The position numbers were made by a program, and so were the translations under genes. The notes below the pieces were generated by a model. The model was not told the DNA's origin. It did no database searches and worked only from the letters and a program-made list of their open reading frames with translations. A stretch of DNA of 63,208 nucleotides, the filler included, from Reclinomonas americana ATCC 50394 (Eukaryota), in the NCBI GenBank assembly GCA_048213135.1. It is 7 parts of 4 records of this genome, joined end to end, with 100 filler letters (N's around TTAATTAATTAA, not from the genome) between each part and the next. Parts side by side here need not be neighbours in the genome. Positions count along the whole stretch, not along the records: positions 17,375 to 30,358 come from PS015305.1; 6 more parts are not named here. One strand, 5' to 3'. Shown here one piece after another: positions 10,601 through 26,974 of this stretch (the first letter of the stretch is position 1; each line of letters opens with the position of its first letter).

Positions 10601-12038
10601 TACGACTCAAACTCGGTGCGATTGCAGCGCAGCAGGTCGACGGGGATCAAGGGTTTCGCTTCGGAGATGGGGCGACGAGCCGGTGGCGGCACCACATGGC
10701 ACAGATTTTCCACGTAGAGCCACACAAACTCGTCGAGTGTCATCAGTACCTGATTCTCCGCGTCCAAGAGGAGCCTGTGTGCGACAAAGAGTGAGCATGG
10801 CGAGAAATGCAGAGCTCGTAAACGCGGCTGCTCAACTTTTCTGTCAACGACAGCGCCCGCATCTCCTTGTTGCTCTGCACCTCGGCCTCGTGCACCATGT
10901 GATTCAGCTGCTCCATGTACATGGCACACACTTCGCTCTCGTCGACGGACGAGTTGGCGCACTGCGACTTGATCACTGCGCGCGCCGTGTGGATCGGCAA
11001 CTTGGTACCGGCACCGCGCAACGTGTAACCCACGTCCTTCAGGCGCGTCAACAAGTCGCTAGGCACATCCACAGTGAGGCGAATGAAAGCACATAATATT
11101 GGCTGGTCTGCGCTAACGCAACATGGTGCGCTGCATGTAAAACTCACGCAGTTCCGAGAAGAAGAAGCGGTGGAACAGATCGGCGCGCCAGTTCTCTGCA
11201 CTGCGTCCGTACATCTCCAGCGAGGCGATAAAGTCGATCAGATGCTGCGCGCAAGCAAGGTGAGGAATCGTTGGTGGTAGCACAGACACATGTGACAAAT
11301 GTGTGACGCAACACTGGTGCACAGTCGAGGCACTGCGTACTCTTGAAGGAACATCTGGTCATCATCACACACATGTCAGTCAGTCAGTGTGAGAGGTCAG
11401 TCGTCCACGCATTGTTACGAACCTCCTCGAGAGCCATGGGGATCAGCATGTCGAGTTCGGTGTTGGCCAGCGCCGGTGGCAACCAGGCCACTGCCGCCTT
11501 GGCTGCCCCGCTTGCCCACAGACCGTACATGGCGGCGATCTTGCGCATGACCCACGGCGATGGGCGCACCGTGATCTTGTGTGTCTCTGCATGGAGAGTG
11601 AGTGAGTGAGGGTGCTGTGACAATCTCCCTGTGATGAAGAGAAACGACTCACCAACATCCAGCGGACCACGAACACGACCGAGCAAGTAGGCCAGCACGA
11701 GTCGCTGCAAGGGCGTCTGTCGCGCCAACAGCTCATCCAGCGTTGTCTGGTCCAACTGCACCTCCACAGGCTCGGCTTCGTCTGCAACAGAAGAAGTGAG
11801 GAATACAGCACACACACACACACACGGCGTCACTCCTTGCCACAGTACACACCTGCAACATTGCTGCCCACCATGGTCTCTACTGCTGTCGTCTGTGTCG
11901 CAACGGCGTCGGCGGACGGCGAGCCCAGTGGCGACGACGGACCGACACCAGCCAGTGCGAGTGGCGGCGGTGATGCCCCGCGACCCGCTGCCGCAGCGGC
12001 CGCACTGGTCGGCGAGGATGCCGATGCGGTGAATTGCT
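10601..12038 (-). CDS. Internal exons of an unknown protein on a gap-bounded contig; probably the inverted middle of the 6188-12991 gene
   Basis: Exons WVMRKIAAMYGL.., LIDFIASLEMYG..RADLFHRFFFSEL, VLMTLDEFVWLYVENLC are open at both gaps, with no start or stop in the contig. Confidence 0.5.
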
Positions 12039-21788: not shown

Positions 21789-24700
21789 TCATCGCACGCG
21801 CACATATATTCTCGGCAGATGCTCCGGTCCGTCCTCCTCGTACTCCATGCGCATGCCTTCCGGGTCACGTTTCCTCACCACAGAGCCATCACTGCAATAA
21901 AATCACCATGCGCGTGAGTGAGACAAATCAATTCACCGCTGCGGTGCGGTGCAGACGGCTACTACGCAACGGTGCCGACACCAAGAACTCAATAATGCCA
22001 GACGGGTCCACGTGCAACTTGTTCTTCTTCACCACATTCTCCACGAGCTCAAGCAGTGGCTTGTCCAGCTCTCCGCGGCCACCGCGAGCCCTGAAGGCGA
22101 AGAACCATATCACGCAGTCCTCTCGCGCCACCGAGATTGCCTCGATGTTCAGCTCGTGCTCCGCCTTCATCTTGTCCAGGAACTGCCAGGAATGCACACG
22201 CGTACGCAGAACATCTGTGAGAACGACTGTATGCACTATACAACCGGCTCCCACCACCGATCGCGATGAACCTGCTGCAGCGTCAAACCACGCGCGTCCA
22301 CATGCACGTTGTCCCACAGCGTGAACGTGTGGTCGCCACTCGCACCCTTGTAGCTCCACTGCACGTTGCGAAAGAAAAAGGCACACCAATCAGTCATAAC
22401 ATTACCGCTCCAGAAAATAGTCCAACATACACTCTCACCTTCGGCGCCTCCATCAGCTCCTGCACGGTGAACATCAGCGTGCCGAGGTTGACCGTCGACT
22501 CGCGAATTGCCGAGTTTGGCCGGCCAGACCAGATCTGCACCCAGCAGCAGCAGCAGTCAGTCAACCGGAAAGTGCCAGCTCGGCGCAACTGAAAATCCAC
22601 TCACCTTCAGCATCTCGAAGCTCGCATAGCCGCAGATCAAAGCCGTGCTCGTCACAGTGGCCGGAATCACGCGACCAGCAACGAGCTTGACCTTCATGCG
22701 GTCTGCTGTGTCGATGCGGTACATGGTGGCACGAATGTTGGATACGGCCATCAAAAAATCCACGTGGTAGTTGAGGTCGTTGTCCTTCTCGAACTCATCG
22801 GCGGTCACCGCCGGCGAGATGTCGCTCGGCGACGGGAGCGAGCTCAGCAGGGCGTTCGGATCGAACTCCTGCATTAGCGACACGTCACTGGTGTGAGGAA
22901 CTCGACACACACGCGCTCCTATCACACGCTTTACAAACCGCCGAGTTGCTGAACGCCTTCACGTTGACGCGCGAGGCGATCTCCAGCACCAGCGCCTTAC
23001 AACGATAGCTGTCCAGATGAAGCTCCGACGGCACAGCAATGCCGAGAGTCTTGGCACGCAGCGCAGTCGCCGTCACCTGTGCACCAACCCGCCATGAGTA
23101 GGGCAATTGCAACAAGCCAACGACACGTTGTCGTGCACCAGGAACTGCACGTGCAGCGGGTTCGTCGGGTCGAACGGCTGCTCCGTCGGATACCTCTTGC
23201 AACCACTCCAGAATGGCGTGCCTGCGATAATACCCCGAGTCTGTAAGCCACCAAGTCACATGGCAGGCAATGCCGGCACAAGACTCACCGTCACGGTTCT
23301 TGGCATCACGTGGGTACCACGAGTGCCACTGCAATGCCGAGTGCACAAACTCCCTCTCGTACAGGTTGCGCGCCCATGCCACGCAGTCATCCAGAGAGGC
23401 GCAGCGGTTCTCGGCGCTCAGAATGCCAGCCAGCTTGCGGGCAACCTGCGACACACCACATTGACTTCGACGTCAGCATCTCCCCCATTGGCTCCGACAC
23501 ACAAGATCGCCTCAACGCAACATCCACTTGCTCCGTCTCCGGCATCTCCTTCATCTTGTCCAGGAAGGACTGCGGGTTGTTGCGGTACTCGGCCACAGTC
23601 TCTGGACAGTCCACAAAATGCTTGTGGAAGACTAACCAGAGAGCGTACAGGATGCAGTGCTCGATCTGCAATTCGAGGCCGTGTCAGTGCTACAAGTTAA
23701 CACCTTCGAACAGCACAGCGAAGCAACTCACCAGCTGAATGCGAGCAAGAACAAGAAGGGAAAACACATGTGAGATTATTGTTTGGCGAACAGAGTTTCA
23801 GATATCATTCGATGACACACGTACTGCGCACATGACACCACCAACGGTCAGCATGCAACGCACTAGCAAGTCACGCGTACACACGCAAGTTACGTACAGG
23901 GAAGCTGAGTAATGTGTCCTTCTTGGCCGTCGGTGGGTTAACCTCGCGAAAGAAGCCGTAGTTGACAGAAAAATCAGGGATCACAATCTGCAAACGGTGG
24001 CGTGAGACACCGCCAATCGTGACGCACTCCGAAACGCCAGTGAACTCACACAGCTGCGCACAGCAAAGCCTTGTGAGCGAAGGACAACGAGGAAAACCAG
24101 CAGGGAAGAAACACACACCAGTAGCACTTGACGGATTCCGCATTGACCTCAACGAGCGGCTTGCGGAACTGCACGCAGCGGTCGTCGACGTACAGGCGAG
24201 CCTGGCGGTTGTCCAGTGCATTCACCACCATATCCTTGTCCTCCCAGAAGGCACGGTCGAACAGGTCTGACGCCCACACAAAGAGTTTTGACGACAAGGG
24301 TACAGTACATCACATGCATGGCCTGGAATTCTCAACGTACCTTCAGTGGCCGGTGCCACCATCTGCTGCAGTGCCGTGGTGCGCATGTTCGGGTTCATGT
24401 TGCCTGCTTGTTGACATGCGGCTCTTGCCTTGGAGCACTGTTTTTTTTCCATCTCGTAGAGTCAGGCAAGACAGACCGATCAACAGCACGGCACACGTTG
24501 CACGCAACACCGATATGCTGCTGGCGGAACAGGAACTGGCGATTGGGCTTTGCGAACTCAATCGTGTCCATGTCGGCCACAGTGATGGCACCACCGTCGC
24601 TGGCAACAAAAACAAGCAGTGAATCCACAGCACCAAGGAGTACAAAACAGCGGCGACACGAACCCGCAGCCCACGCCCATCATCGCAAAGTCCTTCAGGT

Positions 24701-26974
24701 ACTCGCAACCGAGAGCTGCAGGAAGCAAGCACATCACCAATCAGCAAGCGAGCAACGGAAACACTCGCTTCTTCCTTCTCACATACGCACTCACCACCAG
24801 CGCCGACTAAAAAGATCTTTTGTCGCAGAATGCGCTCCTGTGCAGCCCTGCCAATCACCGCAATCTGTCCGTCGTAGCGGCTTCCAATCGGTGCCAGCTC
24901 AGCCTCCGACAGCGGCTCCTCCGGTAGCACCTCCACAAAGTCCAGGTACATGAGCTGGTGCAGCGGCTGGTACCTCTGCGTCACAGCCTTCTGTGCCTCC
25001 TGCGCTGCAAGAGCTCCCAACACCGACGCCTGTTGTGGGGCAAGGAGTTCAAATCTCGCCTCCAGTCTTACTCTCGTCCTGCCCCCTTTGCAACGCACCA
25101 TCGGGTTCAAGTCGCCCTGCGAGTACAGCGCCAGCTTGCGGACCACGTCCTTGTTCACCTCCTCGAACGGCATCTCCGAGCGCACCGGCACGATCGGCGA
25201 GCCTGGCACAAACTGCACCCGAGTGGCCGCAAAGATCGCCTCCGCCTTTTGCACCACACGCTCCGCCTCGGCCACATGGCCCGGAGTCGGTAGACGACCG
25301 TTCTCGGCCACAAAGTGCGACAGCGCCAAGAAGCCAAAGTGCAGCGACTCCGAGTTGCACGAGAACATCTTTATCAGATCCGACTGCACAATCGGACCCG
25401 GATTCTGCAGCACGTCGCGAAGAGGACGCTGCAACAACAACAACAGGGAAGAGAATGAGCAACACTCGCACAAACTCGGAACGTGATCATTCGCAGTGAG
25501 TGGGCTGACGCAACGAAGGAGAACGGCATCGGCTTCTTCACACCCTTGACAAAGCCACTGCCGCCAAACTCGCCCTCGTGCGGGATCATGCCGATCGAGA
25601 ACGTAGTGCTGTCAATGATGGTGACTTTGAACTCGTTACCGTTCAGACCCTCAATACCGTCGACGTCCTGCACCGACGAGTGTCAGCAACTGGAAGGCAA
25701 TCCACACGCAACACAACACACACAGCACCTTGAACGACACAGTGTCGCCGTCCTGCAGACCGTGGCTCAAGATTTCGTCGGCCACGCGGATGCGCACCAC
25801 ACCCTTCTGTCCGACACTGTGGCCGGCCTCGTCGTACATCGGGATTGCCTCCTGTAGTCACGGCCCGAGTGGTTGTCAGAACACTCCCAAGTTGCTTGTG
25901 AGTGTGGCCTCACACAACGCAACAATCATCTGCACAGGGAGCTCCTGGAACTCCTCGCCGTTCAGATCGTTGCACACAAAACCGTGGCCAAAGTCCGCAA
26001 ACAGCATGGCAAACGGACCTGCGTGTACACGCCCAGTGAGAATTCTCCGTTCCTTCTCTTGGCCTCTAGCCAGCATTACCACTCACCGCGCGACTGTGCA
26101 ATCACCACCTTCAGGCCCTTGTCGTGGCACCAGTCGGCGAGCGCCAGCAGATCGGCATCAATGTTAGTGTCACAGATCTTGTGCCAGTACAATGTGAGCG
26201 ACAATGGATAAGAGACAGGCCAAGGGAAAGTGAGGGGTACGCACCACTAGGCAGTCGTAGATGGAGCGGCCGTCTGGGTGCAGGTTCTCGGACTTTTTCA
26301 GGAAGTCGAACAGGTCACCAGTCTCTGCACAGCCACGCACATAAGCAAAGTGAAAAGAGAGGGGCTGGAGTGGTAGTGGTACGCACCGAGGTGAGTGTTG
26401 ACAGTCGGGTTGAGCTCGTGTATTCGTGTGAAACAAGCATCGGCGCGGTTCTTGCCAATGTCGTCCTCCGACAGCGCAAACTGTTGTGTGCGTGTGAGAG
26501 AGTGTGATGCAGCGTGTTTGAGCAGCAGTGCACAGGGGGAACCTGCGACGAGAGATCCATGAACGTGGTCACGCGCGTGTCATGCAGCACAATGGTGTCG
26601 ACGCGAGTGTGTTGTCTGCAGGAGCTGGTGCCAAGCATCGCCATGGGCGCACTTCGAGTCAGCATGATGTTCTTGGCTGTGCGTGAAACAGCAGCGAGTG
26701 AGTGAGGAGACTTCATGCTCTCTTCTCTCTCTCTCACGAACCGACTTCTGCGCCCACGCCATTCAGGCCCGACACAATGTACTTGATCCTCTTGAGGGCG
26801 TAGACGTCGCCGCGACCGAAAGACGCAGCGACATGGGAAAACTGTGACACGAGGAGAGGTGTGAGGAGATGATGAGTGTGTGGGAGAGAGAGAGAGAGAG
26901 AGAGAGAACGGGGTGTGACAGTGAACCTTCTCCTCAGCGGCAAGCAGGAAGAGATCGCGATGGCCGGAAGACAT
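21789..26974 (-). CDS. Ubiquitin-activating enzyme E1 (UBA1/UBA6-like), full length, but catalytic Cys replaced by Asp
   Basis: GLNGVGAEV|AKNIML, DLSSQ|FALSEDDIGKNRA, SRYDGQIAVIG, FLVGAG|ALGCEYLK, DMDTIE..NRQFLFR, NALDNRQARLYVDDRC, FEKDNDLNYHVDF..SNIRATMY..AGRVIPA, UFD-like end ..LPRIYVRVR*. More than 20 introns. Confidence 0.92.

Follow-up and report, generated by a model that had tools for sequence, protein, structure and literature searches.

Is the 232-nucleotide (nt) gap between two exons of an E1-like gene of Reclinomonas americana ATCC 50394 a single intron, or is it three introns arranged around two exons of only one codon each? The gene lies in a 63,208-nt stretch of DNA from the genome assembly GCA_048213135.1. 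This whole 63-kilobase (kb) stretch is referred to below as the window; all coordinates are positions of the window, and the gene is read on the minus strand. The original prediction had placed two consecutive 3-nt exons, TAC (Tyr) and CTG (Leu), inside the gap. Judged from the sequence, the gap very probably consists of three ordinary GT-AG introns around these two one-codon exons, and we consider it quite likely that both codons are used as exons.

Two probable one-codon exons in an E1-like gene

Upstream of the gap, exon 16 (23898–23987, 90 nt) ends in TTCCCT (…SFP). It matches residues 582–611 of P0094 in a tblastn search with 60% identity, P0094 being the predicted 1024-amino-acid (aa) product of a Spironema sp. 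transcript from EukProt. The putative intron a (23824–23897, 74 nt) runs from GTACGT to GCGCAG and is followed by micro-exon 1, TAC, at 23821–23823. Intron b (23735–23820, 86 nt) then runs from GTGTGT to ATTCAG and leads to micro-exon 2, CTG, at 23732–23734. Finally, intron c (23666–23731, 66 nt) runs from GTGAGT to TTGCAG and joins exon 17 (23522–23665), which opens ATC GAG CAC (IEHC). The three introns would all be in phase 0, and each contains a branch-like motif. In intron a this is CTGAC at 23847–23851, with the A 25 nt from the 3′ end and no AG up to the acceptor. In intron b it is CTCAC at 23770–23774, with the A 37 nt from the 3′ end and a T-rich tract, free of AG, reaching to the acceptor, and in intron c it is CTGAC at 23683–23687, with the A 19 nt from the 3′ end. 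In every case the proposed CAG acceptor is the first AG past the motif. The sequence pattern and the coordinates given for the two 3-nt exons in the original prediction proved to be exact on the minus-strand reading.

The gene as a whole (21790–26974, minus strand) starts with an ATG at 26974–26972 and has at least 26 short introns. It was recognised as a UBA1-like E1 gene from its Pfam domains and from a spliced alignment to P0094. Translations of single exons matched E1_4HB (1.5e-11), ThiF (7.2e-09) and UBA_E1_SCCH (2.3e-15, 4.1e-07 and 8.8e-05), in agreement with the UBA1 domain set of two ThiF-type adenylation repeats, a four-helix bundle and an SCCH domain. With P0001, the gene's most conserved exon (88 aa), as the query, an exhaustive profile search gave 2235 proteins at E ≤ 0.001. 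Among the matches listed, P0094 is the best full-length relative sharing the local signature …PDFS.NYG…EVNPP…. From the spliced alignment to P0094 and a reading of the three frames, 21 introns were placed with confidence, 16 of which were picked identically by the aligner. When these and five sub-introns (a, b and c, together with d and e described below) are removed, 2940 nt are in frame from the ATG at 26974. This 26-intron model yields one open frame of 1064 codons, whose product shares 38.8% identity with P0094 across 1025 alignment columns (700 bits), in support of the E1 assignment made in the original prediction. None of the 26 runs of N in the window falls between 21348 and 28487, a region that contains the gene.

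In a MAFFT alignment, an Asp of exon 16 (GAC, 23916–23918, minus strand) aligns with the catalytic Cys of ten out of ten homologues. An E1 would be expected to carry this Cys six residues before the FP at which the SCCH domain starts, and Asp stands there instead. The gene is best named E1-like because Asp occupies this position, and on sequence grounds it may encode a thioester-dead E1 paralogue. A UBA1-like protein from a tick (P0119) also carries Asp at the catalytic-Cys position. At the other end of the gene, on the minus strand at about 21790–22180, an exon ending …YVRVR-stop resembles the E1 C-terminus. No in-frame GT-AG intron linking the preceding exon to this putative last exon, which extends to about 21792, was found.

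Intron lengths and splice signals

How long is an intron in this gene? Every one of the 21 confident introns measures 61–89 nt. The five sub-introns a, b, c, d and e are 74, 86, 66, 65 and 62 nt in length, and their unsplit versions are 232 and 127 nt. Both micro-exons of the focal gap are thus bordered on either side by complete GT-AG introns of normal length. If the gap were removed as one intron (23897–23666), TTCCCT would be joined directly to ATCGAGCAC, the internal sites would be chance or cryptic ones, and the protein would read FP-IEH, two residues short. Such an intron would stay in frame and would have good outer signals (donor 3.1, acceptor 6.1 and branch 6.2). It was also the choice of the homology-guided spliced aligner under an ordinary intron penalty, which agrees with the earlier suggestion that gene predictors would miss the micro-exons. 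With 232 nt, however, it would be 2.6 times as long as the longest of the 21 confident introns.

For scoring the splice signals, weight matrices were built from the 21 introns, covering 9 nt for the donor, 15 nt for the acceptor and 7 nt for the branch motif. A CAG acceptor is present in 20 of these introns, and CTGAC or CTCAC occurs within the last 45 nt of 12. The donor and acceptor scores are 3.1 and 5.4 for intron a, 1.9 and 2.3 for intron b, and 5.4 and 6.1 for intron c, with branch scores of 2.7, 6.2 and 6.2, respectively; the totals for introns a and c are 11.2 and 17.7. The donor, acceptor and branch scores all fall within the leave-one-out ranges of the 21 introns, which are 0.4–5.4 for donors, −1.1 to 6.6 for acceptors and 1.1–6.2 for branch motifs. 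The summed internal score of the gap is 23.91, compared with about 21.5 expected for two real junctions according to the leave-one-out lists. In length and in their CTGAC or CTCAC motifs, the three sub-introns fit the other introns of the same gene; the original prediction had called their length typical of the genome, which was gauged here on 21 introns of this one gene.

Elsewhere in the gene, the same odd donor heptamer, GTTGCGT, is found in four introns (at 25923, 25514, 24508 and 23521, minus strand). Several other donors read GTNCGT, and the donor consensus past GT is weak. A single confident intron, that at 26244–26178 (minus strand), has AAG at its 3′ end in place of CAG.

High-scoring donor–acceptor pairs are in excess at 60–89 nt, above a background that is too strong to set a limit on how many introns of 100–300 nt there are. 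Chains based on codon usage only did not separate the strands, a chain with a tblastn bonus read through introns, and the splice-model chain gave many doubtful long introns.

Chance expectation for the internal sites

Could the internal sites have arisen by chance within a single long intron? Outside the focal region, 580 AG-NNN-GT sites were counted in 113,536 positions on both strands. This corresponds to 5.1 per kb, or ~1.2 per 232 nt, and speaks for the single intron. The bare pattern is not beyond chance, whereas the quality and the spacing of the two sites are. When acceptor, donor and branch scores were combined, the CTG site reached 13.9, a value matched by none of the 580 other sites, so that no AG-NNN-GT composite site in the window scores higher. 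The TAC site, with 10.0, was matched by 30 of the 580; at this density (30 sites in 113,536 positions), a site of its quality is expected ~0.01 times in the 41 allowed positions.

The same question was addressed by simulation, using a statistic that adds up the scores of the four internal sites and of the two internal branch motifs; each sub-intron was restricted to 55–95 nt. None of 20,000 Markov-simulated interiors attained 23.91 with two 3-nt exons, and 381 of them had any legal parse. When all in-frame pairs of exon sizes were allowed (at most 11 nt each and at most 12 nt in sum), the observed score was attained by 15 of 20,000. Among 20,000 dinucleotide-shuffled versions of the 232-nt interior, one attained it and 154 had any legal parse into 3 + 3 nt. 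Retraining on 16 introns or changing the length limits to 45–120 nt gave 0, 2 and 3 of 10,000. The likelihood of the signals under a single intron is about 1e-4. Internal sites of such quality and spacing turned up in no more than 3 of 10,000 shuffles and nowhere else in the window, which argues against one 232-nt intron.

The original prediction had also proposed a genome-wide scan for internal sites of this kind, and it was carried out on both strands of the 63-kb window as a search for three candidate introns spaced 3 + 3 nt apart, each with a total of at least 8. It returned 11 triples, 10 of which are variants of the focal locus (best sum 39.2), the only good 3 + 3 triple found. The sole other one, at 60580–60339 on the minus strand, is weak, with a sum of 26.0.

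Signals of this kind might also be present by descent rather than by use, if the sub-introns were tandem copies of one intron plus three bases. A duplication of this sort would create AG-NNN-GT junctions automatically; no evidence supporting it was found. The pairwise local alignments among introns a, b and c were matched by 94, 67 and 88 of 300 shuffles, and the three differ in length as well as in G+C fraction (0.55, 0.41 and 0.52, respectively). Because the sub-introns are dissimilar, their splice signals were not copied by tandem duplication. With pairwise similarity no better than that of shuffles, this origin was rejected, and we regard it as extremely improbable.

Fit to E1 homologues

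What would the two codons contribute to the protein? The tblastn search paired residues 582–611 of P0094 with 23987–23898 and residues 614–647 with 23665–23564, and left residues 612–613 (YH) unpaired. Position 1 of the Pfam SCCH profile corresponds to Pro611 of P0094, and the first residue of exon 17 to position 4. In the MAFFT alignment with ten homologues, two empty columns are found exactly between exons 16 and 17. Among the matches listed, all 33 proteins of at least 700 aa have two residues between FP and xxH; 26 of them were recognised by a strict pattern and the remaining 7 individually (1 + 5 + 1). Inclusion of TAC and CTG restores this conserved spacing, and the earlier claim that the two exons supply exactly the residues between FP and IEH is supported. 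A single intron would instead require the loss of two residues from a position at which both are present in 33 of 33 homologues.

The FP–xxH motif is carried by 47 of the 151 proteins compared. The first residue after it is N in 17 of the 47, S in 11, Y in 10 and H in 6, and the second is A in 12, K in 8, N in 6, M in 2, L in 2, I in 1 and V in 1. Among the matches listed, the sequences nearest to the gene in this region read FP-YH (P0094) and FP-YI (L001), L001 being an intronless E1 on a metagenome contig and the sole locus that came from the metagenome scan. Tyr would therefore be the residue of the relatives at the first place, and Leu, at the second, would be a conservative replacement for Ile or Met. 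In the preferred-codon ranking of the seed set, CTG is 1st and TAC is 4th. A word-based protein search with the conserved exon found one close relative, the 178-aa fragment P0002, which lies outside the micro-exon region. Protein searches for close relatives with the exon opening IEH and with the exon ending in FP gave no match.

A probable third micro-exon

The other long gap of the gene, 127 nt in length, divides in a similar way. From the sequence, the 4-nt segment CTGT (24050–24053, minus strand), 230 nt upstream of the 3-nt pair, is a probable third micro-exon, with support equal to that of the pair. It would be preceded by intron d (24054–24118, 65 nt, GTGTGT to GCGCAG, phase 2), with CTCAC at 24077–24073, and followed by intron e (23988–24049, 62 nt, GTGAGT to TTTGCAG), with CTCAC at 24006–24002. 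The unsplit alternative is one 127-nt intron with a GTGTTT donor at 24114, whose score of −0.2 is lower than all 21 leave-one-out values. Both forms give a protein of equal length (Cys-Cys in the split form, Trp-Cys in the unsplit one), and two empty alignment columns are seen there as well. In shuffles, a split of this quality was attained in 0 of 20,000 for a 4-nt exon and in 1 of 20,000 for exon sizes of 1, 4, 7 or 10 nt. Among the intron/micro-exon/intron pairs of the window, CTGT ranks second, just behind the CTG site, and the signal-only chain picked the split form. Three micro-exons, of 4, 3 and 3 nt, would thus lie within 390 nt of one gene, around the would-be active-site loop. That a second long intron splits likewise is a further point against the single 232-nt intron, which, taking its good outer signals and its reading frame into account, we consider quite unlikely.

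When the other micro-exon candidates of the window were examined for their reading-frame context, just one, at 11339–11334, was located between protein-like flanks. In this neighbouring gene, the signal chain prefers a 21-nt exon (11334–11354, minus strand) between introns of 68 and 89 nt over the 6-nt exon, although the latter has a good score too. The window alternates in G+C content, with about 60% in genes and 32–46% between genes. Its 26 runs of N amount to 5068 bases in total, and (CT)n and (CA)n microsatellites occur in introns and spacers.

Weighing the readings

Several points weigh against two one-codon exons. The reading is drawn from the DNA, with splice matrices trained on one gene and 21 introns, 5 of which were placed by eye, and the prior for a 232-nt intron is bounded just by its 0 occurrences among those 21. 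Intron b is the weakest of the three, and a signal-only chain in which the threshold for each intron was set at 12 retained CTG and skipped TAC, giving introns of 163 and 66 nt. Frame is no test, as all four combinations of inclusion and skipping stay in frame. On the protein side, Leu is the second residue in just 2 of the 47 homologues. Moreover, because Asp replaces the catalytic Cys, the constraint on this segment might be weaker, and a protein that already lacks this Cys would also be easier to reconcile with a single intron.

Some of these points bear on a third possibility, namely that the sites are used in part or under regulation. CTG might be a real exon and TAC skipped, leaving a 163-nt intron and FP-L-IEH, or both codons might be alternative cassettes that give several isoforms. 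The CTG site is indeed far stronger than the TAC site (13.9 versus 10.0), the signal-only chain and the free choice of frame are compatible with such usage, and coding micro-exons of plants are described as mostly included but often alternative (PMC8831610). However, a 163-nt intron would again exceed the 61–89-nt range. The expectation of about 0.01 for a site of TAC quality, the two residues needed by the homologues and the presence of Tyr in the closest relatives among the matches listed also stand against it. We therefore hold partial or regulated use to be unlikely, and prefer the reading in which both TAC and CTG are exons.

Proposed course of splicing

How could exons of three bases be spliced? 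With both codons included, the mRNA would read FP-Tyr-Leu-IEH, and therefore the two-residue spacing at the SCCH start would be preserved. We propose that each intron of 60–90 nt is recognised across the intron, through its donor, a CTSAC branch site and the first downstream AG, in which case no exon recognition would be needed. U1 pairs with the last three exon bases, so on a 3-nt exon it would clash with factors at the upstream AG. Removal would have to be stepwise because a 3-nt exon cannot hold the 3′ splice-site complex and U1 together. The order would most simply be 5′ to 3′ during transcription, that is, a, b and then c. Once intron a is gone, the FP exon together with TAC would act as a regular 5′ exon in the removal of intron b, and likewise at the next step, with the micro-exon fused to an exon of normal size after each step. 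The splicing itself, this order and the constitutive inclusion of both exons are what we infer from the signals, their excess over chance and their agreement with homologues.

Relation to known micro-exons

Micro-exons overlooked by annotation are already well documented in plants and animals, and the present case is a rare extreme. In plants, coding micro-exons of 1–15 nt have been proven and are mostly absent from annotations; they include the 1-nt exons of APC11 and VPS55 and adjacent exons of 5 and 12 nt in a rice transcript (PMC8831610). Micro-exons of land plants are also the subject of MEPDB (PMC12409088). Like the exons proposed here, those of land plants are coding, of constitutive type, too small for an exon-definition complex and flanked by ordinary GT-AG sites. 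They likewise keep a conserved motif intact, are missed by the reference annotation and are sometimes adjacent. The plant cases, however, have proof from RNA sequencing and reverse-transcription PCR as well as cross-species conservation, whereas ours is read from the genome. The E1-like gene has two consecutive one-codon exons and protist introns of about 60–90 nt, while the flanking introns in plants are longer and often detained.

Animal micro-exons measure 3–27 nt, with a 3-nt exon known in Ncam (as cited in PMC8042270). In C. elegans, micro-exons with flanking introns of 49–58 nt are included without PRP-40, which was read as default intron definition, and steric interference is stated to prevent exon definition of very small exons (PMC8378409). 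The likeness to our case lies in sizes down to 3 nt and in the published model, intron definition, which is easiest with very short introns. Most animal micro-exons, however, are neuron-specific, regulated cassettes between long introns, whereas those of the E1-like gene, a gene of housekeeping type, are probably constitutive. RPS24 has three consecutive micro-exons of 3, 18 and 22 bp (PMC12207440), and so resembles the present gene in its succession of micro-exons, which includes one of 3 nt. The RPS24 exons are alternative, C-terminal and found in a vertebrate gene, in contrast to two single-codon exons inside a conserved domain.

Another related process is recursive splicing, which in long introns of Drosophila takes place at zero-length exons, or ratchet points (bioRxiv 10.1101/290007). 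In both situations a long gap would be removed stepwise by way of internal composite sites of acceptor and donor. A ratchet point reads AG|GT and retains nothing, whereas three bases would be kept at each site of the E1-like gene, and the gap is just 232 nt. The internal sites are not recursive splice sites of this kind: TAC or CTG stands between AG and GT, and splicing would leave no GT at the start of the joined sequence to act as a new donor. In the limited set of literature searched, taken without supplements, we found no case of two consecutive single-codon exons, or of any in a protist.

Implications

A standard gene model of this locus would be two residues short at the SCCH start and would probably contain a poor donor 230 nt upstream. 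Such annotation errors may be systematic in intron-dense protist genomes. Hardly any test of exon-independent splicing by intron definition could be harder than two one-codon exons side by side, and, if they are real, they force an ordered, stepwise removal. Confirmation by RNA would mean that the spliceosome is able to take out three full introns around 3-nt exons without an exon to hold.

As a more general and rather doubtful proposal, the spliceosome of this organism may be strictly intron-defining, with an optimum of about 60–90 nt and no constraint on exon size, so that exons of one codon or less are regular. If this were true, more than 1% of exons genome-wide would be shorter than 10 nt, and most of the apparent long introns in annotations would be chains of unit introns. 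R. americana would then be a natural system for probing the smallest exon that a spliceosome can manage.

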